64,000 nt of DNA. It comes from Bilabrum cf. latius (Eukaryota). Shown in pieces: positions 1-43,582 of the stretch; within the stretch, counting starts at the first letter, position 1; every line of letters starts with the position of its first letter. The position numbers and the translations under genes are program-made. A model generated the notes under the pieces. The model was given only the letters and a program-made list of their open reading frames with translations, was not told where the DNA came from and did not search any database. The stretch spans positions 1-64,000 of the forward strand of contig OZ237754.1 of the NCBI GenBank assembly GCA_965178125.1. The letters run 5' to 3'.

Positions 1-613
1 ACCCTAACCCTAACCCTAACCCTAACCCTAACCCTAACCCTAACCCTAACCCTAACCCTAACCCTAACCCTAACCCTAACCCTAACCCTAACCCTAACCC
101 TAACCCTAACCCTAACCCTAACCCTAACCCTAACCCTAACCCTAACCCTAACCCTAACCCTAACCCTAACCCTAACCCTAACCCTAACCCTAACCCTAAC
201 CCTAACCCTAACCCTAACCCTAACCCTAACCCTAACCCTAACCCTAACCCTAACCCTAACCCTAACCCTAACCCTAACCCTAACCCTAACCCTAACCCTA
301 ACCCTAACCCTAACCCTAACCCTAACCCTAACCCTAACCCTAACCCTAACCCTAACCCTAACCCTAACCCTAACCCTAACCCTAACCCTAACCCTAACCC
401 TAACCCTAACCCTAACCCTAACCCTAACCCTAACCCTAACCCTAACCCTAACCCTAACCCTAACCCTAACCCTAACCCTAACCCTAACCCTAACCCTAAC
501 CCTAACCCTAACCCTAACCCTAACCCTAACCCTAACCCTAACCCTAACCCTAACCCTAACCCTAACCCTAACCCTAACCCTAACCCTAACCCTACCCCCC
601 CCCTAACCCCTAA
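1..613. repeat. Telomere, (CCCTAA)n / (TTAGGG)n
   Basis: Perfect CCCTAA array from base 1 to ~594, then degenerate units (cctaccccccccctaacccctaa). The C-rich strand at the 5' end marks a left chromosome end. Confidence 0.99.
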
Positions 614-1293
614 AGCATGTATTGGCAGATTTAAATGCAATATTGCAGTCCCCGGCAGTTAAGCTACATTTTACATCCACATTCACATGTTTGAGCTTGC
701 ATTTGACTTCAATTTCTTCGTATCTGCTTACCAGGGGCTGGTTCTGTTGAAGTCTGGCTAGCGCCCAACTCGCAGACCAAAATTTCATAGACAGCATTTC
801 TCGACGTTGGTGTAGAACTGGCCGGACGCTAATTTATATTTTATTATTATATCAATAAATAATGTATTGGTTGTATTATTATTACAATTACATATCCATG
901 GAGTAAGAATATGAGCTTCCAAAAAACCGTGTCGCGGTCAGAGCAAAATTATTGAGGCCCCATGTAATTCATCAATGAAGCCACCTAGCGAATTCACAGC
1001 CGGCTATTACGTAGTTAATGAAGTTGATTTACTATTTCAACTATCAAAAGTAAAATTGGCATTCGTTATGCCTTTGAATTTTGACACGATTCGGAGGGGT
1101 ACCAACCGATGAAATCCCGGAACTGCCGAAAGTTGGGTTTTCGCCGGGTCGGGTATGTGGTGTGTGAGAGATGCCATCCTGGCGCTGGATGAGTCGAAGC
1201 TGCCCATCGTTTTACTGACCGCGCTTGACAGCAGGCTAGCACCTGGCCCATCAGCCAGGAGCTCCAGCTCACCAGGTTAGCTTAACCTAAAAA

Positions 1294-1965
1294 AGTTGGG
1301 AAGTGAGATGGAAGTGCGGCGGATGGATGCGATAGGGCATGGTTGCCATAGTTGGAAAGTGAGATGGAAGTGCGGCGGATGGATGCGATAGGGCATGGTT
1401 GCCAAAGTTGGGAAGTGAGATGGAAGTGCGGCGGATGGATGCGATAGGGCTTGGTTGCCATAGTTGGGAAGTGAGATGGAAGTGCGGCGGATGGATGCGA
1501 TTGGGCATGGTTGCCAAAGTTGGGAAGTGAGATGGAAGTGCGGCGGATGGATGCGATTGGGCATGGTTGCCATAGTTGGAAAGTGAGATGGAAGTGCGGC
1601 GGATGGATGCGATAGGGCATGGTTGCCATAGTTGGGAAGTGAGATGGAAGTGCGGCGGATGGATGCGATTGGGCATGGTTGCCATAGTTGGAAAGTGAGA
1701 TGGAAGTGCGGCGGATGGATGCGATAGGGCATGGTTGCCAAAGTTGGGAAGTGAGATGGAAGTGCGGCGGATGGATGCGATAGGGCATGGTTGCCAAAGT
1801 TGGGAAGTGAGATGGAAGTGCGGCGGATGGATGCGATTGGGCATGGTTGCCATAGTTGGAAAGTGAGATGGAAGTGCGGCGGATGGATGCGATTGGGCAT
1901 GGTTGCCAAAGTTGGAAAGTGAGATGGAAGTGCGGCGGATGGATGCGATAGGGCATGGTTGCCAT
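1294..1965. repeat. Subtelomeric minisatellite, 12 x 56 bp
   Basis: Unit AGTTGG(G/A)AAGTGAGATGGAAGTGCGGCGGATGGATGCGAT(A/T)GGGCATGGTTGCCA(T/A). The span of 672 bp is exactly 12 units. Confidence 0.97.
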
Positions 1966-2036
1966 GGCTGAAAAGTGCAAACAAAGTAGCTGCAAATAGA
2001 ATGTCATTTCAATTGTAGCAAGACAAAATGTCTGCA

Positions 2037-5000
2037 TCAAATGCTGCCTTGCTTGCGCGGCGGCTTCACATCGCGTCGCATCGACTGGATTTCCTGGGTT
2101 CTCTCCAGTGTTGAATCTGACCAAAGGAACCAGCAAACCGCAGCTACAAGAAGACTGATCAAACCAAGAGATATCAAGCCGGCACCCCCGAGTCGAGTGC
2201 CATGAATGTAGGAGGGGGCCTGGTAGTCGTCTTGTTCGCAATCATTTGTTCCACCATCCCCACCACAATCTTCAATATATCGAGCTATCTCGCCACCACC
2301 AATACCAAGCATACCAACAACTACGAGAACGACCCCTACAAGAGCTAGCCAAAGTGGACACGAGCTGTCGCCACCACGATCTGTTTCCTCAAGGCTTGAG
2401 TCGTAGACCTGCTTCATATTGTCATTGAATTGATGCGCCTGGTTCAAATGACTACGAGACGGCGTCGCCTGAATCTTGTCTACCTGTGCTGCCAATGCGC
2501 GAGATGCACTGTCAGATGCATCACCCACAATAGCAAATGATTCATGCGCAAGACCAAATGCCGTGACGACAACCCCGGCTGCAAGAGAAGTCGTGCCGGC
2601 TAAATCAGTGCTGACTGCAGCCAAAGAGCTTGTTGCGCCACCCTCACCCTAGCCTTTCCCGAGATCTGGTCCAACCTGTACATGCTATGGGCCGCACATG
2701 GACTACACTTCGATGGAGCCACTGCGACCCCTTCCGTGCTGCTAAGTGACTGCCCGCACGACCTGTGGGATGCTGAGTATCGATGTACGACACATACCTC
2801 CACTCTGCCCGTCGCCTTCTGTGATTTTCAGTTGAGAAACTTGGTGTATAGACCCATCTGGAAGTTGGGTAACCACAATCTCTGCATCACGGTCCCACAG
2901 AAACCCATCAAGCTCGAAAGTGGCTACCAGCTCGCCAGATGAATCAGTAAGCAAAACGCCAGGTGGCTTGTTCAGGACGTCGGGCGATTCAGCAATACTG
3001 GAGGGTACAAGCTGAATTGTACCAAGTGGAACAGCTTCCAAGCCTGGTACGCTGACAGAAACGCTCAAGCTCGCTTGCGCTCGCCAGAGGTCCAATCCAG
3101 ACATGCTAGCCGGCTTGGGAGCCCTGTACTTCAACGTCAGTGCCTGGTGCACGAATCTATTGGTACTTGCGGAACCGCGCGAGTTCAAGGTTTGCGAGGA
3201 CCGGGAATGGAAGGGCTTCAGTATTGCAGAAGCTGTTCCAACTGCCTGGAGAGTTGAGACAGGTTTGATCCTGCAGCCCCCTTGCATCGCAAACACAACG
3301 CAGGATCTGTGAAGATCCGAACTCACCGACTCGAGATGTACAGCCAGGCGGGGGTCCTGCTTGCCAGTGGATCCGAATGACAGATCTACGACGAGTGAAG
3401 CTGCCAGGGCCATCTAGTTGCTTGTCCCGCTAGGGCTCTACCACGCCTCCAGCAAGACGTGATCAAAGGCACCCAAAGAGTCGTAGCCCTGGCCAAGGGT
3501 GGGAGTCGAGTCGTTCAGGTTGACCGGACCGCACAGCTCGAATGTTCCCGGCGAGGCGCACCGATCCATCGGCGTCATGATGCACGGACTCCCTGAGTGG
3601 GAATAATCGCCCGCATCAATTGCAGTCGCAACCCATACATAGTTCGCAGGTTCCATTAGCACGTCTGCACCTCGTTCATTGATGCAAATCTTAAGGGATG
3701 CAAGGCAAGCTTGTTCGATCGGATTGAGCTCAGTGGCAACCAACCAGCCGACTGCATCTCGTGTTCCCCCTGCCACTGCAGTCTGAACCTGCACGCACAC
3801 GCCAGTTGCATGGGACAAGGAAGTGCTCTGAGAAAAATCGTTTAACGCCATGTCCAAAGCTGTGGCACTTGGTACATCCGACAGACCTGTAATCCCTGCA
3901 GCACGAAGTGTGGAATGCAAAGCCCCAAGCCTGCTGCTCTTGGCGCTTAGTATTTGACTCATCGCGATACGTGGCTCTCGCAGAGTAGGAACCCAGCCAA
4001 GCTACTGGACCCTGCTAGCATCAGGATGCGACTCAATTGTCGACAAAATCAGGCAAGGTCCTACCAGCATTTTGGTGCCTTGACCCGGAAGCTATGAGAC
4101 CGATTGCAGTCTGCGTACTTCTTGATTGCCAGATCCAGCAGTGCTGGTCAACAGCTTGCGCGTCGCGAGAAATGCGTCAGCTCTGCTCGCCAGAGTATGA
4201 ACAGCGATGTCCTTGGCATCAAAATCAACTCTTGCGGGGATGAATGCCACTGGGTATGGCGAAGATACTCGATCTCGGACACCGAGCTTCCGGCTCTAGC
4301 CAGCTTGTAGTTCTGCGAAAGTCTTTGCTACGCGAATCTGCACCACTACTGAGCGATTGCTTGGGGTAGGAACCGGGCAACTTCTAGCAAGCTGAACCAT
4401 AGCATTGCCTACTCGTGAAATGGTTTGCCTCGCTGCTGCAACGTCGCTCTAGCCACTTCGCGCCAGGTCCCACGCACGCTACGTTGCAGCAACTGCGCTC
4501 ATAGTGACAAGATCCATACGTGACTACGCACCAAGAGCTGTTCTTCCGGCAACTGACATGGGTAAAAGGAATGTTTCTTCCAGTATCCCACTTCTAGTGC
4601 TTGCATGCTCGTCATCATCGGCGCCACTAGAAGGGTCATTCAGTTTTCTGACGAGAGGCCACAACCAATCAGACATATCAGCAATGGCCACCGTGTGCCT
4701 CGAAGTAGCCTACATTGATGACATCCCTCCACTTCTTGCCGGTGAAGGTAGACGCTACTCGATGCCCAACACAGCCCGCATAGCAGTGTGCCTGGCTGCT
4801 GCGCCCGGCCAGGATGGATCTTCACCGAGAATGCTCGTTGACAGGAGTAGCGGCCCAGTAGAGCAGCCATCAATACTTGCATCTGTCATAGGTTGTTCAG
4901 CAAGACGATATGCGCAGCGTCCCAACGAGAAGACGGCATAGGGCTACGCCTGCGATGAGGACGGATCGTACCGGTGCGCTTCCAAGTGCTGCCCAAATGC

Positions 5001-8000
5001 GTCTTTGCCTCGCTGATGTGCCTCAAGCGCAAAGGCATCAAAGCCACCACCAAGCACCCTGACCTGCGCCCAGAACTAGGTTTCGCTTGGGTGGTTACGA
5101 TTTCCAGCAGCAGTCTCAAGGTCATCTGAACTGAAATCTGGGTCAAAGGATGGTTGCATCTCGTTCGAAATGCTGTCGACAGGAAGGCTCCTTGCGCGGT
5201 CATCCAAGAGGCGACCCACGGCCTTAGGCGAAACGTTTAGATCCTTGTCTGAGAGAATGAGGCTAGCAGCCTTTGCAACTACCTCAAATGCCTTAGAGGG
5301 ATCAAGCAGCACGTCGCCAGCAGGAGCCTAGGTGGGGTGGCCAGGCACATTGTCGTTGCCTCCTGTTCCAGCAATCGCTGCTCCATCTTCGGAGCGGGTG
5401 ACACCCGTGAGCCCAGGCTAGGCACCGCTATTATCAGGCAGAACATCAACACTGAGCAGTAGAGATGGGTGACCAACCTCAGAAACTAGATCCTATCGGC
5501 CGTCTTTGGAATGCACGTCGCAATCCGGCACTAGATTCACCCAAGCTGGTGCCCGAAGCCCAAATCGTCGGGTGGTCAAGCTGTGGCTAGATTGTGTTCT
5601 TTGGTCAGGCACAAGGCGAACGAGAGAAGCAGCAGGCAATCGGCGGAAGAATCGTCGCTCCAGAGATGGCCTCTTCAAGCCTCGCGCCCGAGCCCCAGTG
5701 CTTCGGTTACTTTCATCATCAGCAGAGAACCTGGTATACAAGTACACACAAACATCAGGTAGAGCCTCATGTCCGCCGACAACTGTAACCGGCTCGCTGG
5801 TCGCTTCAATTGGTTCTCGCAGCGCTTGAAACGTTTGAGCCGCACTTGAAAGCTCATCTCCAACACGTTGGTCGTGTGCCTAGGTCGAACTGGAAAAATT
5901 GGGGGGTGGGATTGGCTTGCCAGCATCATGATCTTGCCCAGCAAGCATAGGCTGCGTGAAAGCACCTACACTTGAAGTCAAGCTAGCAAGGATGCCATGC
6001 AAGCCAGGCGGGATCCCGCTGACGGCGTGCAATACAATCCGCACCCTCCATGACTGCACGGCTCCGTATACTACTGGACGGAGCGAAGGAGCACTTGGAA
6101 GCAACGGATCAGACATTGTTTCCCACATAGCATGTAGCACTTGGCTCATCGCCTCGGCTGAAGGGATAACAACCTATCTTGCAAGCTATGCACCGTCAGG
6201 ACCTGCTTCATCCAATTGCTGCTCGGCTCTCTTGGTCTTCACCACCGATAGCAGCGCATCATGCTAGGAGAATACGCCAGGTGGTGCACCAAGGCACGCT
6301 GCAACTTGCTATGAAACGTCTGACTCAGCCGATATTGCTCTGGAGGCCGGCTAGCGAGCAACTCGAGACATGACGGTAGCCATGTCTTCCATCGGGCTTT
6401 GCAGACACGATGCCAAGACTGGCAGAATCTATGGTTTATGCAGTTTGCGACTGAAGACCACATGTTCATAGGCGGTGCCGGCTTGGTTTGTGCGTGTTCT
6501 GCCGCTGCGAGCTGCTTGGATGACACACGCCTGGACAAGAGCTACACCTCGCGTGTGAGACCTGACAGAGTAGTCTGTTACAGTATCGACTCCACCATAC
6601 ATGGCCACCCACGTGGGTTTGCACATAGACACGCTAAGATCATAGTCTTGGCTTTCGAAGGCACGCTACGCGTCACTACCGTTTGACTGAAGTAACGGGC
6701 AGATGTCGAGGTGTCCATCACAGATTGGCACTGCGGAGCCGCCGCTTCCGCCCCCCACCCCGAGCGAAATACGAACGGGCTTCCTTGAAGCCTCAGGGTC
6801 GGACTCGTGTATCAGGACTGGGAGAATACAACTGTTGTCTTTGCGCCAGGAGGCACAGATGGGCTTCTACGCCTGGTTAACTCCTCCCTCGTGGTGTCGT
6901 ACCTAGATTCTTCCTAGGTCCCTCGAATCCGAAGCCATGTGTTGCATCCGTTGCTCCTACATGGGCTAGAATCGAGTTTTCCACGCATCACTGAAGGCCT
7001 TTGCAATCGCTTGGGCTCGCAGGGAGCCGCCATATGAGATCGAAGCCGCAATGTGCAGCGGATTCCTGGACTTGCGCGAATCTAGGACGGCAGGCACAGC
7101 TACATGCTCAATTCGCAGCAACCGGAGTTTCACAAACGCAAGTCTCATTCCATTCGATGGCTATGCCACAGTGTCCTACAAAAATCTCTCCAAGAAGGGC
7201 TCATCTACATTGCTCCAGGGTAGCCGAATGGGCCGAGGAATAGCGGCTGACCACCGGTCTGCGGCCATGCCCTGCAGACTTGCAAGGTCTTCGTGTTTCA
7301 CGGAGGACACAGGGATGACTACTGGCCCTGGGATTCCTGACAGCGGCATACTAGGAGCATCATGCCCATGCGAAGCTTGCCCCCTCATTCCAGATGCAGA
7401 TGTCAAACCAGGCGTCGATGCACCACCCTTGACTGCTCGCACACCATGATCCTGGTGGTCTTGCAAAGGCCGCGGCTTCGGCACAACTGCCACTCGAACC
7501 AACGCCATCCACTTAACTATCGGAGAGAGAGTATCATTCGAGTCACTGCAAGCCACCCATGACATGTGAGCGGGTAGTTCTGGCGAGGACAAATCGATTC
7601 GGGCGAGGGAAGCACTCGTTGATTGAGAGGGCGGGTGCAATGGTATCCAGCACTGAGCCGTACACCCCGTGGCGCCATTGGCTACAATCGGGAGATCGAG
7701 CAAGACTGTCGACTTGTGCTCAACGATACCGTCATCGACGCTGACGCTAACAGTGAGTGCTTTCGACATGCAGTGCGGGCCAAGCTGTGCCACACCTCGG
7801 GTGTCGATAGCTAGCAGTGGCCCTCCAGAGGAAGCAAACGCTGCCAGCTATGAGTTTCTGCTAGCTGTCCTCCTGTATGTCGATGTGACATTGCCAGACT
7901 GGGAACGATGCCCGCCTGCCAGTGCCCAATGATCCCGGGACCCAGCCGTAGATGATATCCAGGCGTGATTGCAGATGACTTGACTGCTACTTGAGCTAGT

Positions 8001-11000
8001 GGGTTCTACGCGGACGAGTTCAACGAGTACGTCGGGAGCAAATACACTGGACCTTGCAGCTCGATCTAAAGATCGCGATACCGCGCAGAGACGCAGAACG
8101 TTATGCGCGTCTTGCACCAGCCTCTACACAGCGAGGACAAGCCTTGAAGCTGAGGGGTCAAACCGCACAACTGTAGCTGGCATTGCATGGCCAGCAACAC
8201 CATCCCGTGAATCCTCATCACGGACTGTTGCAGACATCAATCCCAACAGAGCGAGTGGACGCGCTCGCAAAAGTACTTCGGGGTGCTGCATCAGTTCCGC
8301 GATGGCAAGCCTCACCACTAGCGCTAGTGCATGTGCAGACGAAGCTGCTCCAGCGAAATGGCTGTGCCGGCTTGACTACGACTTGGGGGGCTGCGCCCCA
8401 TCTTCGGAGCTGCGTACCCCTCCAGGGGATGCACTGGTCACCGTGCTCGGGACGCTATCGCTACCAGCTCCAGAATGCGCATGGGCGAGTTGATCGTGGT
8501 CAACTGGTGGATCTGGTTGCGAAATCGAGGCCTCTGCCCTTGTGACTCGATCTACTGGCTGTTCCACCGATCTCCAATCAAGAAGCACATCAATTTCACC
8601 TCTATGCTTCTATCCTGGGGTAATACAGTCCTTCTCAAATAACTATAGGGTTGCACGCTCGGTACCCTGCTGCAGCCCCAAGCCTGACTGTGTGGAAAGC
8701 GAAGCTCGCCGAGCGGTGCTACCTGCCTCCTAACCTACATTGCCATGACCAGGTTCGATGTACGGCAAGTAAATGAATGCACTCCCGAGGAAGTTGTTGG
8801 ACATCATGACGTTCTTGTTCTCCAGCGTCACTCTAGCGATTGGGACGCTGGGTCTAGCAAGATGAGCGAGGGGGTCCTGGTGCTGGCCCTTGCCAACATG
8901 AACCAGGGGGCTCGTCGCTCTCTAGTACTTTCGTGACTGCTACCGTGCTAGCAGTGCCGTCTGCAATACATCCATGGGAATTGGGATGTGAAAGACTTCC
9001 GAGCTGGAATCGAAAGTGATTGCATCCGTTGATCCGTCCACCACTGAGGTGGAAGCAATGGACCCCCAAGCAGACACCCCAACCTTGGTCGGCGAGCTCG
9101 GCGAACTGGTCAAACTACCCATGCTGCCGAAGCTACCATTTCCCCGAATTGAGGCAGGTGTTCCGGCAGCTGTTGTCTGCGATTCAATGGCGCTTGCAAT
9201 TTGCGGCAGCACTGCTTGCACACGAGCCATGACGTGGTTCTTTCCGCCTGACCCCTTAATCTCCAGGTCCTGCGCTCTAAGCAAGGTCAGTCGCACTTCA
9301 TTGACTGTACTCCGCAGAAGCATAGGGCTTGCGTTTACGCCCACTTGCTAGCTGCGTTGCGGAAGCGTCGCTGGACCAGCTGCAGCTGGGTCATGCACCC
9401 AACCGAACACCAGGCCTGTACTTGGAGGTGGCATTCTGCGTGGGGACATAGACAGCGGCCTTGCTGTGGAGGCACCTGCACTTCCTTCCTTGGAATCGGA
9501 CGGACCCATCATTGGGCTACCTGCTAATCCGCTGGGTTCATCGACTTTCCCGGAAGCGGTAACCTCTACCCGATCCAGCACCTCGGCCTTGCCGTCCTTC
9601 CTAACAGCAACCCGGATCAGAGGCGCAGGTGGCGGCAGCATCCTACTGGGAATCACAGTCATCATTGCTGGGGCCTCCTCGCAAAAGTCAAACTGACACT
9701 GTAAGTCGCATTGTCCTCGGACTTTACTGCTTGTTTGTGGCAAACCGTCCCGCTCGTTCAGTGCAACGGTAATTCTACGTCTAGTGACACCAACGAAGTC
9801 ACCGGCACGTACTAAAAATGCACCCAAGAAGCGCTGCCTGTACTTTCCGGCATGCCAAATGGTAAACTTCGCGACCGAGTCAGGGTTCTGCAAGGGCAAG
9901 ACGAAAGTTTCATCGCTGAAGTCAGGTGTCAGTGTCTTGGATCTCGGCTTGGTCGAAACCGGCTGCTACTACATTACAGCTTCCCCCCCATCAATTACGT
10001 TGCACTCGACTTTTGGGGTACTGGTGAGCCCTTTGGCCCCTTTTGCCTCAATCCCATGTACCCCGAGGACGGTTGCAACGAACCGATTCGGAGCTGCTTG
10101 CATGCGAAGCTAGGAAGGTGGAGTAGCCTGCGGCTGAGCAGGGGCATCAGCGAGGCCTGCACTCGCGTTGGGGCGTTGGATCTTGTCAGGAACAGCGGGA
10201 GGTTTTTTTCGCGCCGGCAATGACTTAGACGGAGCAGCGTGATCCTCGCCTGCAGTGCCACTCTCCGCATGCCCAGAGCTCTCGCCAATGGTCTCCATCA
10301 GCGGTGTCTTGATGTCCTCGTCTCGTGGATGAAGGCCATCCTTCATCCTGTTCAGCATACCGGGACTAAACGATGACCGTCCAGCTCTACCGCGACCTCT
10401 ACCTCTACCTCTGCCTGCTCCCATTGGAGACATGCCTCGGCCTGACGATGCCGTGCTTGCACGGCGGCCCTGATTTAGTCGCTTCTTTGCCAGTGGGTTG
10501 CCAGAGGAAGACCCAAATCCATTCAGTAAGCTCTCGGTGGCACCATCGCTCGCAGCATCTTTTGACTCTCCTTTGACCTGCGGCAATCCTAGTGACTCAC
10601 CGCCGCCACCCTTGTGAAATGAAACGCTTGCACCTGCACCAGCTGAACCGGCATGCTTAGCAGCTGCTGCGATCATGCCACGTCTACTATGATCCCCAGT
10701 TGCTTTGTCTGAATGCTCATGGATAGATGCGGCAGGTTTATCACTGCCAACCTCAGCCTCAGCCTCAGCATCTGCCGGCGACACAGCAGCGTCGGCATCT
10801 GTTGGCGATCCAGCAGGCTCAGCGCTGCCAGCCTCAGCCTCAGCCTCAGCCTCAGCATCTGCATCTGCCGGCGACACAGCAGCGTCGGCATCTGTTGGCG
10901 ATCCAGCAGGCTCAGCGCTGCCAGCCTCAGCCTCAGCCTCTGTCGGTGACACGGCAGCGTCGGCATCTGTTGGCGATCCAGCAGGCTCAGCGCTGCCAGC

Positions 11001-12270
11001 CTCAGCCTCAGCGTCAGCCTCAGCATCTGCATCTGCCGGCGACACAGCAGCGTCGGCATCTGTTGGCGATCCAGCAGGCTCAGCGCTGCCAGCCTCAGCC
11101 TCAGCATCTGCTGGCGATCCAGCAGCGTCGGCATCTGCTGGCGATCCAGCAGGCTCAGCGCTGCCAGCCTCAGCCTCAGCCTCAGCCTCAGCATCTGCCG
11201 GCGACACACCGGCGTCGGCATCTGCTGGCGATCCAGCAGCCTCAGCATCTGCCGACCTTCCGCCAGATTCACGGTAATCTGACCCGGAAGTGGCGTTACT
11301 ACCGTCGCCCTGGGAAGGCGCCGGGCGGAGCTTGTGCGGGTCCTCACCGGCCCCACTGCTTGGACCGCCCTCAGTCTCTGGTGGTGGCGAAGGGGGCGGG
11401 CTCACGGCGCGCTCGCCGTCTTGGGTAGCCTCGCCCTCGCGCACTTCTGCGGACAACGGTGGATTCTACCGCGTCTACCCATTGACTGTAACGCTTCTCG
11501 TGCTCTCCAGAGGGCTGCCTAATGCCGCGTTCGATGCAGTGGCTGCATGCCCAGCTGCATCCTCCACACTGGCATCAGTTGCGGCCTTCACCGGCTTCTT
11601 GCGCTTTGGTTTTACCGCTTTTCTGGATTTCTTCTTCTTAAGTTTGGAAGGGGGTGCCGAACTGGGCGGCTTCTTCTTAACCGTGCGCCTTGTGGACTCT
11701 GGAGCCAGGTCCCATCCACCTGGTTCAACTTTAGTCGGCCCATCTAGTACGATTGGAACACGTTCCCAAGCCGCCTATAACATGAGCGCCCCCCGCTATT
11801 TCTCAGCAACTCCTCCACCTTTTTCTGTTAGCTGTATCGTCGCCATTTTCCTGTAGGCTTCTGTTCCATCGGCGACTTGGCTGGCGGCTAGCCTCGCCTC
11901 GCCCAAAAATCTAGTTCGAAATACCTACGGCGATACCAACGTGAGAACAAGTTCATGATCAGGTGTCTCGGCTGGAAACCAGAATTCCTCCCCGATGCTT
12001 ATGGCACTCCCAATCTGCGACTCGTTCGGAAGGGTAGTCGATGCAATTTTGCATTCCGATCTGAGACTGTGCGTGGTCCGCACCAAGAATGGGCATACTC
12101 GTGGGATCGAGCAAATATCTTACAGGAATTACGCTTGACTTCAAGGTCTTCAGCTTTTCACCGCTGCGAAATAACTACACCTTTAGCTGTATATCACCTT
12201 TTCTCTCGAGCCCGTTTGCCGCCACCACATGAAGCCTGAACACGTCTTGTCCGCTCCCTGCGCTCGCCAT
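2037..12270 (-). CDS. Giant (~3370 aa) multi-C2-domain protein with C-terminal transmembrane helices (ferlin/MCTP-like architecture)
   Basis: ATG 12270, GT-AG intron 12123-12015, then one frame to TGA at 2037 with ~50 in-frame TAG and no TAA/TGA (traced by hand). C2-like segments include LHVVAANGL, FLGEARL, FTIWHAGKYRQRFLG and LTLLRAQDLEIK. Two hydrophobic helices lie near the C-terminus. Confidence 0.8.
10745..11250 (-). repeat. Coding tandem repeat (acidic Ala-rich SP(A/T)DAD(AE)nAGSAEPAG units) inside the C2 protein
   Basis: Near-identical nucleotide units with a variable number of GCCTCA hexamers, all in frame. Confidence 0.9.
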
Positions 12271-29983: not shown

Positions 29984-32065
29984 ATGTCATCTGCAAAGAA
30001 GCTACAAGGTACGAATATTACACTCTATAGGACGAATGCCTCTTGAATGAAATGCGAGGCACGGTATGACTGCGAAACGCTATCGTTGCTGAGGAGCCCA
30101 CCGTATTCTATCTCGCAGCGGACATTGACAAGACACTGAAGAAGATCAATGATGGCATCGATGCATACGAGCAGAAATGGGAATTGGTAAGGAAACTGCG
30201 TCGAGTGCGCTGCGGTCACTGGATATTTGTAGCCACTACGGGTGGTCGGACGTCCCTGCTCAATTATTTCGCAGCTCATGGACACTGACGCTCCTCATCT
30301 CAAGGAGAAGTACGAAAGTGACTTGAAAAAGGAGCTGAAACGCCTGCAGAAACTGCGAGAATTGGTCAAAAATTGGGCGAACTCGTCAGATGTCAAGCAG
30401 AAAGAGCCTTTGTACGAAGCTAGATCGAAAATCGAGCGTCGCATGGAGCGATTTAAGGCTCTAGAGCGAGAGAGTAAAACTAAAGCGTACAGCAAGTAGG
30501 GACTCATGCGAGAAGACGAGCCGGATGACCCCGAAAAGGCCGCCACACGAGAGTGGCTGAATGATATGCTGCGGCAGCTCGCCACGCAGACCGACGAGAT
30601 GGAAGCCGAGTTGGAGCAGGAGCAACGCAAGCGCAAACCTGATGCAGACACTGAGGAAGAACTCGAGTCATGCATAAACACGAACCGCTGGTACACAGAG
30701 CGCCTGGAGCAGCTGGTGCGTCTGCTGGACAACGACGCAGTGGAGCCCCCTTCCCTGGAGGACTTGCAGGACCTGGTGGCCGACCATTTGGATAGGGGCA
30801 GGGACGCAGACTACGTCCCGGACATGACAGTCTTCGAGGACTTCGAGAGCCTCTTCGTGTTCGACGATGATGACGATGACGACGAGGATGACGACGAGGA
30901 CGGAGGCGTCGGGGCTGCGGCAGATCCGAGCCAGGGGGCTGCCGCAGGCGGAGCTGGGGCGGGCGAGTCGTCGGCGTCCAGTGCAGGGGCCAGCAAAGCC
31001 AAGAAGTCGAAGGCAGAAGAGGCAGAGGAGGCAGCTGCCAGTGCTCGCCGGTCGAAACTCAAGAAAAAGGCTGCCAAGAAAGAGAAGGAGAGACAGCAAG
31101 CATTGGCAGCCAAGCGAGCAGTTCCGGTTCCTCCTGTCGATAAGGCTGCGCCCGCATCGACCACAGCTTCAAATCCCACGCCGGCCTCTGCCCAGCCACC
31201 CCGACCCATCGCTGGATTCCGTAGTGCGGTCCGCGGCGCCGCCATGGCCCAGCGAACCACACCGACCCCAGTCACGCCGGCGGCACTCGCCGGGGAGGCA
31301 GCCGCATCCCCCGGGCCCCAGCTCGCAGCAGTAGAGCAAGCTGCCCCCAAGCTGGCCCCCAAGGCGGGGACGGACGGCGGGGGCGTGCGGGGTGCAGCGA
31401 ATGGTGCTGTGAGCATGTCTCCGCTGCAGGGAGGTGCATCGCACGGTGGGGCACCCGACGGCAGCACCGCCAGCAGGGGCGCAGAGGGGTCTGACTTGCG
31501 GGAGGCCAGGAGGGGGCTGGCGCAGTGGACACTCCGAGGTCCACCTGCAGACGCGGGGGGCATGACTCGGGGCATGAGTCTGGAGCACAAGGCAGAGATG
31601 GACCTGCTGCCTGAGCCCATGCCCCTCGAGGCAGCCAGGGAAGCGCTGATCCAGATGCAGGCCACCGCGAGTCGACTGCCCTCCCTCCCCGACGTGGAGC
31701 CCCCTGCGGCGTACATGCCCCGCAGGCCCGCCCCCGGACACTCCTCGTTCCCCTCCAGGCCCTTGGCCTCGCTGGCCACCCCGGCCATGACCTCCAGGAT
31801 GACGACACAGTCGCTTTTCTTCGTCTTCTACATGCAGCAAGGGACCTTTGCGCAGTACCTGGCGGCTAGGGAGCTGAGGAAGAGATCTTGGAGGTTCCAC
31901 CGCAAGTACTTGACCTGGTTCCAGAGGCATGAGAAACCAGAGGTAGCGACCAAGACGTACGAGAAGGGCAGCTACCTGTTCTTTGATTACGAGCAGGGGT
32001 GGTGCCAGAACATCGTGAAGGACTTTGTGTTTGAGTACGCCCATCTGGAGGATGAGCTCAAGTGA
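29984..32065 (+). CDS. CNOT3: CCR4-NOT complex subunit NOT3/NOT5
   Basis: [48 protein letters not shown], and NOT box ([29 protein letters not shown]). Introns 30009-30118 and 30187-30274. Ends TGA. Confidence 0.95.
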
Positions 32066-39939: not shown

Positions 39940-41614
39940 ATGCGCGAGATCATCCTTATTCAGCTTGGTCAGGCCGGTGTGCAGATCGGAAATGCTTGCT
40001 GGGAGCTTTTCTGCCTGGAGCATGGCATCCAGCCCGATGGGCAGCAGCGTAAGATGGTTTGACGCCCTTTCAGATTATTGTTCACTGTGTTTTACAGAAG
40101 GCGTGCAGCTAGTTGATCATGGAATACTGTTTCATGAGCATGCTATACCTCCTGCGAAGATGAATCCGTTGCGCATGCTAGCCAACTGCCACGCCACCCT
40201 CTGCTCCTATTGATACAATGTTAACCCTCTTTCGCAGCGTGAGAACAAATTCAGAATTATTCAGCTCGTAGCTTGTATTAACAGCATTCATTCGCTGCAG
40301 TGCTAGGCATCCAGGTCAGTTCGCGCGAGGATTTCACCGTTGCACGTTTTCGATTCCACACACATCACCCATCGCAGCGAGGGAGCCGCCATCGAGGACG
40401 ATTCTTTCAACACCTTCTTCTCGGAGACTGGTGCTGGCAAGTTCGTGCCCCGGTGCCTGCACGTGGACCTTGAGCCCACCTGCGTGGACGAGATCCGTAC
40501 CGGAACCTACAGGAACCTGTACCACCCCGAGCAGCTGATCTCCGGCAAGGAGGACGCCGCCAACAACTACGCCCGTGGTCACTACACCATCGGCAAGGAG
40601 GTTGTGGACCTGGTCCTGGACCGGACTCGCAAGCTGGCCGACAACTGCACCGGCCTGCAGGGATTCATGATCTTCCACTCCTTCGGTGGCGGTACCGGGT
40701 CCGGCTTCGGCTCGCTGCTGCTGAACCGCCTGTCTATCGACTACGGCAAGAAGACCAAGGTTGAGTTCGCGGTGTTCCCCGCCGCCCAGATCTCCACCGT
40801 GGTGGTGGAGCCCTACAACGCGGTGCTGTGCGCCCACGGCATGCTCGAGCACTCGGACGTGGCCTTCCTGGTGGACAACGAGGCCCTGTACGACATCTGC
40901 AGGCGCAACCTCGACATCGAGCGCCCCACGTACACTAACCTGAACAGGCTGCTCGCCCAGTGCGTGTCTTCCATCACCGCCTCGCTGCGTTTCGATGGCC
41001 AGCTGAACGTGGACCTGACCGAGTTCCAGACCAACCTGGTGCCCTACCCCCGGATCCACTTCCCCCTGTGCACGTACGCGCCCATCATCCCCGCCGAGAA
41101 GGCGTACCATGAGTCCCTGACCGTGTCAGAGATCACCAACGGCGTGTTCGAGCCCGCCAACTCCATGGTGAGGTGCGACCCCCGCCACGGCAAGTACATG
41201 GCATGCTGCATGATGTACCGCGGTGACGTGGTGCCCAAGGACGTAAACGCCTCCATCACCACCATCAAGAGCAAGCGGACCATCCAGTTCGTGGACTGGT
41301 GCCCCACTGCCTTCAAGGTCGGTATCAACAACCAGGCCCCCACCGTGGTGCCCGGCGGCGACCTCGCCAAGGTGCAGCGCTCCGTGTGCATGATCTCCAA
41401 CACGACGGCCATCGCCGGCGTGCTGGCTCGCATGGACTCCAAGTTCGACCTCATGTACTCCAAGCGCGCCTTCGTGCACTGGTACGTTGGTGAGGGTATG
41501 GAGGAGGGTGAGTTCCTCGAGGCCCGTGAGGACCTGGCGGCTATGGAGAAGGACTACGAGGAGATCTCGGCTGACACCGCCGAGGGTGAGGGCGAGGAGG
41601 AGGAGGAGATGTGA
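39940..41614 (+). CDS. TUBA: Alpha-tubulin (divergent), exons 39940-40048, probably 40238 (1 nt), and 40378-41614
   Basis: [55 protein letters not shown]. No in-frame TAG, ends TGA. Confidence 0.97.
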
Positions 41615-42375: not shown

Positions 42376-43582
42376 CAGACCTGAGAGGGGGGGGGGGGGG
42401 ACACTGTCCCCCCCCCTTCGGCGATGAGGGGGGGGGGGGACACGTGGAGCGGATTTCCGGATCCCCTGAGAAGGGGTGTCCCCCCCCCCCCCCCCCTGCC
42501 CTCCCAAGCCGGCCAGGCGGCCTCAGCAACGTACAGGCCCTGATGCACCCTCCTTAGACCCTATGGCAGCACCTACGTGCATGCCATACCCGATTTAGGC
42601 TCGCTTGGATGCCTAGCAGTGCTAACCTAGCACCAACAGAGCCATACCGTGTGAGGCTTGCAAGTTGCAACCGCTCGTCTTCCGATGGCTGTCCCAGCTC
42701 ATCGCTGACTACAAGCAGGCAGCGTTTGCTGCGGCTCTTGCTGCTGGTGCTGCTGCTATGGATGAGACAGACGAGGCACGTCGAGGTGTAGGGTAAGTAT
42801 GAGCTGCAAGTCATCACCGAGGTGCAGGTGGGGGCTGCCATCGCCGGTACCGAGTTCATCCACGTCGCGAGGCTGTCGTCAGCGGAGGTGGAGCGGGTCT
42901 TCTCCGTGGCAAAGGCGGTGGGGGATTTGCGCAGGGTGAGCCTGAGCGTGACACAGCAGCAGTTTGAGACCAAGTGCCGCGTGGGGCGGCGACTGTGCCT
43001 GCGGCTGCTCGCAGTGCTCGGCAAGTACCTTCGGGAAGGAGGAGTACGTGACCCAGAGGCAACCGTGGCGTAGATTGCTGACGTGCTCGATCAGTGCCTG
43101 CCACGCCACGACCTGGCGATGCAAGGCGAAGCCTATGAGGGTGAAGAGATGCTGGACGGGATGGAGGAGGGTGACGCAGACGGGGCTGCGGCTGGGGAGG
43201 GTGGTGGTGACGGCGAGCTCTGAGCGGTATGGTGGTGAATCGACTGTGCTGGGGCAGCTGGTTCCTGGAGTTCAACTAACTGAATGATTTTCCATCTTTT
43301 CTTTCTTCCATTTCACGGCAAGTAGCCGATGGCCAAGAAATCGAGTAATACAGATTTATTGGTTACGTTACGTTTTTGCGAACTCTCCGGCATCGGCCTG
43401 AAGAGAGTAGAAAATGGCACAATGTTACTCAAAATCATCTGAAAAGCACGAATATGCCCTTAGATTTTATATTTGATGAGTGGAAGTGCCTTTTCTTGGG
43501 GGGGGGGGACCAGGGGGTCTCAGGGAGGTGTCCCCCCCCCTGTCCCCCCCCCTGTCCCCCCCCCCCCCCCCTCTCAGGTCTG
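42376..43582 (+). mobile_element. Non-autonomous (internally deleted) hAT DNA transposon, 1207 bp
   Basis: TIRs CAGACCTGAGA-G(14-16)-ACA at both ends. Perfect 8-bp target-site duplication GCCGCAAA (42368-42375 and 43583-43590). Internal hAT dimerisation motif. Confidence 0.93.
42609..43223 (+). pseudogene. hAT transposase C-terminal remnant
   Basis: LSSAEVERVFSVAKAVGDLRRVSL matches the hAT C-terminal SSAxxERxFS...RxxL motif. The frame is open through two TAG to TGA 43223. No N-terminal or catalytic core is present. Confidence 0.75.

Follow-up and report, generated by a model that had tools for sequence, protein, structure and literature searches.

A probable constitutive one-base exon in the alpha-tubulin of a free-living marine flagellate with apparent sense use of UAG

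How can the two coding parts of an alpha-tubulin gene be spliced together when one base of the reading frame is missing between them? This question is raised by a gene in the first 64,000 nucleotides (nt) of contig OZ237754.1, forward strand, from Bilabrum cf. latius (GenBank assembly GCA_965178125.1); this whole stretch is called the window below. Exon 1 of the gene ends with ...GGG CAG CAG C, the last base being 40048, and GTAAGA begins at 40049; a reading extended past 40048 meets a stop after four codons. The main exon is preceded by an acceptor, ...CATCGCAG, with its last base at 40377, and opens with C at 40378, followed by GAG GGA GCC GCC ATC GAG GAC GAT TCT TTC. One base is left over in exon 1 and one is brought by the main exon, so that exactly one base is missing and a single intron between these sites would shift the frame. 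On the evidence of the sequence, we consider it likely that the missing base is the C at 40238 and that this C is a real one-base exon, spliced into the alpha-tubulin message. The gene would then consist of the following parts:

39940..40048, + strand: alpha-tubulin exon 1, with the ATG at 39940, 36 codons and the first base (C) of codon 37
40049..40237, + strand: intron 1, 189 nt, GTAAGATG ... CCTCTTTCGCAG, GC content 0.47
40238..40238, + strand: proposed one-base exon, the C that would be the middle base of the Pro-37 codon (C/C/C), at the sole AG-N-GT in the gap
40239..40377, + strand: intron 2, 139 nt, GTGAGAAC ... CACCCATCGCAG, GC content 0.47
40378..41614, + strand: main exon, with the third base of codon 37, 411 codons and the stop TGA at 41612-41614; GC content at third codon positions (GC3) 0.91

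The gap between the two long exons measures 329 nt. It contains CCCTCTTTCGCAG-C-GTGAGA at 40225-40244, with the C at 40238, and this is the only place in the gap where AG-N-GT occurs, in the form TCGCAG-C-GTGAGA. A preliminary description of this DNA had pointed out the phase mismatch, the acceptor-C-donor arrangement and the two introns of 189 and 139 nt; the mismatch indeed amounts to exactly one base, the arrangement is the sole one of its kind in the gap, and the coordinates and lengths of the introns are both correct. With the single base included, the predicted alpha-tubulin has 448 residues. Codon 37 would be assembled from three exons, as C (40048), C (40238) and C (40378), and would encode Pro. 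Given a C before and a C after, Pro at this codon requires a middle C. Elsewhere in the tubulin gene, all 18 Pro codons are CCC as well (17/17 in the main exon and 1/1 in exon 1). Exon 1 has a third-position GC content of about 0.69 by hand count, which is below that of the main exon. Exon and intron maps based on GC3 were tried and set aside as too noisy.

Only internal exons of 1, 4, 7, 10 and so on nucleotides can restore the frame. The preliminary description had also named a 14-nt candidate at 40301-40314 as a rival exon, which proved to belong to the wrong length class and cannot restore the frame with the acceptor at 40377. Other frame-restoring internal exons (4, 7, 10, ... nt) were considered and rejected, having either poor donors or residues that the relatives lack.

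What do the relatives have at this position? The identity of the gene is that of an alpha-tubulin: its matches carry PF00091 and PF03953, and its best relatives are 90-95% identical. Exon 1 alone matches the Pfam Tubulin profile (PF00091) at positions 1-29 (E = 1.5e-8), and the N-terminus that it encodes matches P0063 and P0072. The main exon shares 95% identity with P0063, 93% with P0072 and 90% with P0079. P0063 stands for a cluster of 182 sequences, among them alpha-tubulins from genomes and transcriptomes that bear the names Cafeteria roenbergensis or burkhardae. Nineteen relatives were inspected, four of which (P0082, P0137, P0123 and P0130) lack the N-terminus and are uninformative here. 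Pro directly follows GQ and a Q, M or K in all 15 relatives that have the N-terminus. In the nine closest of these (P0063, P0072, P0125, P0135, P0131, P0136, P0124, P0133 and P0154), exactly one residue, Pro, stands between the two parts that are encoded by the long exons of the window gene (9/9); the other six with Pro are P0079, P0085, P0088, P0089, P0090 and P0107. With the one-base exon, the protein reads GQQ-P-EGAA like its relatives, without any insertion or deletion (indel). Its score against the first 90 residues of P0063 is 468, and 423 of its 448 residues are the same as in P0063. The earlier claim that the added C yields Pro at codon 37 therefore stands, the codon being CCC and the residue that of the close relatives.

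A metagenome scan, in which 80 loci were kept, provided a further comparison. Only one of these loci, L001, is close to the window gene (95%), all others being at most 85%. In contrast to the window gene, L001 has no intron at codon 37, where it reads without interruption ...CAGCAGCCGGAGGGC... (CAG CAG CCG GAG GGC), and it can therefore be used as an intron-free ruler. Its introns occupy other places, one following ATGCG and one following codon 22, which shows that those at codon 37 are peculiar to the lineage of the window gene. The Cafeteria-type alpha-tubulins (P0125, P0135 and L001) share 94-95% protein identity with the window gene and have the same short loop. The best explanation of these likenesses is that the gene is functional and belongs to a bicosoecid stramenopile closely related to Cafeteria. 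As a side observation, the coding part of the first alpha-tubulin exon in L001 (3251-3255; 3256-3778 is also listed) consists of ATGCG only, five bases, and is followed by a long intron. The public Cafeteria protein P0125 lacks about 13 residues where the L001 introns lie, and this shortfall looks like a mis-annotation caused by introns of the L001 type.

The next question is whether the splice signals around the single C are those used by this genome. Four homology-supported introns in two other genes of the window, one Not3/CNOT3-like and one for a PP2C phosphatase-family protein, served as a reference set:

30009-30118, + strand: Not3 intron, 110 nt, GTACGAAT...TCTCGCAG, then C
30187-30274, + strand: Not3 intron B, 88 nt, GTAAGGAA...TTTCGCAG, then C
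20187-20085, - strand: PP2C intron, 103 nt, GTATGATC...CCTCGCAG, then G
19986-19731, - strand: PP2C intron 2, 256 nt, GTGAGATC...CATCGCAG, then C

The exon between the two Not3 introns matches positions 8-28 of the Pfam Not3 profile (E = 0.0014, under the curated cut-off), and the exon that follows can be aligned with human CNOT3 starting at residue 39, the numbering being consistent without an indel. When the PP2C gene is aligned with human PP2C-alpha, exon 1 pairs with residues 1-37 and exon 2 with residues 38-69, while the third exon holds the remainder of the Pfam PP2C domain. All four reference introns end with TCGCAG and all four start with GTRNGR. Both acceptors of the tubulin gene (TTTCGCAG and CATCGCAG, each followed by C) and both donors (GTAAGA and GTGAGA) fit this consensus, which confirms the earlier remark that the signals are typical of the genome. 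The likeness goes further. The 9-mer at the acceptor of intron 1, TTTCGCAG with the following C, recurs unchanged at the acceptor of Not3 intron B (30267-30275), and the donor GTGAGA and the acceptor CATCGCAG followed by C of tubulin intron 2 are identical to those of PP2C intron 2. Both tubulin introns also have GT, AG and pyrimidine-rich ends. Over the whole window, YYTCGCAG is enriched, with 27 occurrences against 14.6 +/- 3.6 expected, a number that was reached in none of 100 shuffles. TCGCAG is an unusually long acceptor consensus; it is present in the four reference introns and in both tubulin introns, and C is the next base in five of these six. The introns of this genome seem to be few and to lie near the 5' ends of genes.

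How often would such a site arise by chance? Expectations were computed per 300 nt of intron under a first-order Markov model trained on the gap and the four reference introns. AGCGT is expected 0.36 times and CAGCGTRNG 0.0145 times, the full TCGCAG-N-GTRNGR 3.3e-4 times, and the same with N = C 1.3e-4 times. The sequence TCGCAGCGTRAGA, with at most one mismatch allowed, occurs once in the window, at the site of the micro-exon, versus 0.19 occurrences expected. The looser motif YAGNGTRAG is found nine times in the window on both strands, where 7.8 are expected; its expectation for one stretch of 329 nt on one strand is about 0.02.

If the C at 40238 is indeed an exon, how could it be spliced? 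Two ordinary GT-AG introns, of 189 and 139 nt, would lie on either side of the single base. Only one base would separate the acceptor site of intron 1 from the donor site of intron 2, and the recognition factors of the two sites would sit on the same bases. Since the acceptor and donor regions overlap, exon definition would be impossible. Each intron would presumably be recognised as a unit, by intron definition, and the two would be removed one after the other. If intron 1 went out first, the new junction would still present a C before GTGAGA; if intron 2 went out first, TCGCAG with its following C would be unharmed. In either order, the sites still to be used would stay intact. As for the origin, the second intron was most likely gained one base away from an existing intron. 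It is from the relative without an intron at this place that we infer the later gain of a second one. Some known processes resemble this scheme. Recursive splicing at juxtaposed 3' and 5' splice sites and the spliceosomal twin introns of fungi (stwintrons) also involve an acceptor that adjoins a donor and stepwise removal. However, these leave no exon base in the messenger RNA, and recursive sites are typical of very long animal introns, whereas in the window gene one frame-essential base would be retained and the introns are 189 and 139 nt long.

Three other explanations may be considered. The one that survives best, although we regard it as unlikely, is an assembly or sequencing indel: in the true genome, exon 1 would end in CC or the main exon would begin with CC, a single ordinary intron of 329-330 nt would separate them, and TCGCAG-C-GTGAGA would be coincidental. 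This gives the same protein as the one-base exon, and therefore protein evidence cannot separate the two. Collapse of CC to C is a known type of assembly error. A single 329-nt intron is also plausible by length, the longest reference intron having 256 nt. Among the sequencing runs listed by a search, 20 of 22 contain part of the stretch; the shares of sampled words found (0.97 in X1-X4, 0.93 in X5, 0.91 in X6, 0.67 in X7, 0.65 in X8, and 0.12-0.30 in the six runs recorded as RNA) are no evidence of expression or of the junction, and even the best share, 0.97, neither confirms nor excludes a change at the two sites in question. On the other hand, the composite consensus site would have to arise by chance, at the expectation of 1.3e-4 given above. 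More than 22 kb of the window lie in three frames that are free of frameshifts and, when TAG counts as sense (see below), 3360, 3004 and 1153 codons long, so that indel errors must be rare in this assembly. From these frames the indel rate would be below roughly 1e-4 per base, and the error would have to strike one of two particular two-base runs. On a rough estimate, the product of the chance site and the indel rate is at least 100 times below the frequency of one-base exons per intron that is implied by the two published cases discussed below. Such a calculation, which can be no more than approximate, would favour the one-base exon over the indel by at least 100 to 1.

A single intron that uses other splice sites and yields an in-frame but altered protein appears very unlikely. 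All combinations of GT or GC donors in 39990-40119 with AG acceptors in 40200-40479 were enumerated. Some single-intron combinations do keep the frame open, and the loop after Pro-37 is variable in length among alpha-tubulins. The best in-frame alternative, a GC-AG intron at 40047-40377, gives GQ-H-EGAA and scores 445 against the first 90 residues of P0063. Donor 40057 with acceptor 40381 gives GQQRKM-GAA (score 444), and donor 40049 with the AG at 40384-40385 gives GQQ-P-AIEDD, where E-G-A is lost (score 440). Sliding both sites by one base, to TA-AG or GT-CA, replaces Pro with Arg. None of these alternatives scores above 445, compared with 468 for the protein with the one-base exon. Each of them loses or replaces Pro or drops residues that are kept in all nine closest relatives, and each uses weak or non-canonical sites beside strong consensus sites. 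Moreover, 40379-40387 encode E-G-A in frame, as in the relatives, which would be a coincidence if these bases were intronic. The last and least likely explanation is a non-functional, decaying copy whose transcript is frameshifted after codon 36 while the protein comes from another copy: further alpha-tubulin copies may lie beyond the window, but the 411-codon main exon is intact with no other defect seen, the extreme codon bias is kept (GC3 0.91; CCC in 17/17 Pro codons), identity to expressed relatives is 94-95%, and a decaying copy is not expected to have a consensus acceptor-C-donor exactly where one base is needed.

Several points weigh against the C at 40238 being a true exon. First, one-base exons are extremely rare, and the prior for any new case is correspondingly low. 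Second, the splice consensus is derived from four other introns, two of which have boundaries that are partly set by reading frames. Third, no branch-point motif could be defined in the tubulin introns or in the four reference introns; YTNAY within 60 nt of the 3' end is lacking in two of the four reference introns. Fourth, no transcript-derived protein of this species surfaced in the protein searches. Fifth, the tubulin introns resemble nothing else in the window, which gives no clue to their origin and no sign of a repeated intron-generating element. Finally, intron length was tried as an argument and dropped: the reference introns have 88, 103, 110 and 256 nt, and with a 256-nt intron in the window a single intron of 329 nt would not be unusual, so that length does not discriminate.

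Some other tests on the gap were also negative. Intron 1 (entered as 188 nt) and intron 2 are not similar to each other, with a score of 17 versus a shuffle mean of 15.7, and the RNA fold of 40030-40400 shows no special structure (z = -0.77). A search with exon 1 extended to 40 amino acids was dominated by long multi-tubulin proteins and returned nothing from this species. Neither the 40-residue open reading frame that reads through exon 1 nor a 37-residue antisense open reading frame across the micro-exon has an exact match in the protein collection. The stretch of 26 bases around the micro-exon has no exact match in genome_contigs and none in viral_contigs.

Are there precedents for an exon of this size? 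In the literature searched, two spliceosomal one-base exons were found, one in a plant cell-cycle gene and one in a rarely expressed fungal P450, and none in a protist or in a tubulin gene. The first is the single-nucleotide exon of Arabidopsis thaliana APC11, for which proof by complementary DNA, genomic re-sequencing and mutagenesis is reported (Guo and Liu 2015, PMC4674806). The parallel is close: the exons are one base out of phase, and the frame-essential base lies inside an annotated intron (of 422 nt), with AG before it and GT after it. That exon is reported to be constitutive, and its introns, like those of the window gene, are of the spliceosomal GT-AG type. The base is A in APC11, while it is C here. 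APC11 is a low-abundance cell-cycle gene of a plant, whereas the window gene has the codon bias of the highly expressed type and comes from a stramenopile flagellate. The APC11 exon is experimentally proven, by that account, whereas the present one is deduced from a gene and its relatives.

The second precedent is the one-nucleotide exon of CYP621A in Fusarium, which is reported to be supported by 20 orthologues, an intron-free relative and SRA reads, and which its authors present as the second example (Nelson and Syed 2026, PMC12940212). The logic of that work is the same as ours: an exon that ends in phase 1 does not fit one that starts in phase 2, and an intron-free relative serves as a ruler. 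In both cases the base is the middle one of a conserved codon and the candidate fits the local splice consensus. There, AG-G-GT is conserved over 20 orthologues and accompanied by SRA reads, whereas the window offers one genome. Intron length, unlike in the CYP621A report, gives no signal here. A single-base-pair exon is also reported for the mitochondrial cox1 gene of placozoans (PMC5436844). It differs from the window case in being organellar, with partly trans-spliced introns and without a spliceosome.

If real, the exon at 40238 would bring the number of known spliceosomal one-base exons to about three. It would be the first from a protist and, in the literature searched, the first outside plants and fungi, and would extend the phenomenon to stramenopiles. 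Taken together, the exon is probably constitutive and part of a tubulin gene whose codon usage suggests strong expression; the organism, a free-living marine flagellate, apparently reads UAG as an amino acid. Exon definition is impossible for exons of one base, and every such case limits the ways in which the spliceosome could deal with acceptor and donor signals that overlap. In alpha-tubulin, if the reading is true, the process must be efficient and constitutive, as the supply of a major cytoskeletal protein would depend on splicing at an acceptor and a donor one base apart. A further implication would be that such exons can arise by the gain of an intron one base from an existing one. The close relatives without these introns would provide a clean comparative system. 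For annotation there is a practical consequence: standard gene finders will break this tubulin gene, and many more genes of this genome if TAG is a sense codon.

In this nuclear genome, TAG indeed seems to serve as a sense codon. When TAG is read through, the longest frames grow from 799, 615 and 521 to 3360, 3004 and 1153 codons; when TGA is read through, the longest frame reaches at most 842 codons, and reading through TAA changes nothing. The three frames are as follows:

2037-12119, - strand: frame of 3360 codons, with 50 in-frame TAG, 0 TGA and 0 TAA
20548-29562, + strand: frame of 3004 codons, with 25 in-frame TAG and no TGA or TAA
48311-51772, + strand: frame of 1153 codons, with 16 in-frame TAG and no TGA or TAA

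The other two frames across the 3360-codon region contain 55 and 126 TGA. Three Pfam domains span TAG codons, namely DAO, BadF/BadG and Zn-dependent PLC, and all five gene ends that were checked are TGA. In alignments, TAG stands opposite the E of the conserved KAYSK-E-GL in human CNOT3, opposite Q in human NAGK, and opposite K or S/A in DAO-type proteins, so that no single amino acid can be assigned from them. The TAG at 30497-30499 is among the examples. No tRNA genes were found in the 64 kb window, the relative L001 shows no signal of TAG as a sense codon, and no report of it for bicosoecids or stramenopile nuclei was found in the literature searched. The tubulin gene contains no TAG codon, and its reading is unchanged by the use of TAG as sense.

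The product of the 3360-codon frame (2037-12119, - strand) matches no Pfam family. Part of it is a long series of near-repeats rich in Ala, Asp, Glu, Ser and Pro (AGSPADADA...), and there is a hydrophobic stretch at its C-terminus; a giant protein of the surface or a secreted one seems probable. At 43529-43564, in an intergenic or 5' region, three copies of TGTCCCCCCCCC form a perfect tandem repeat.

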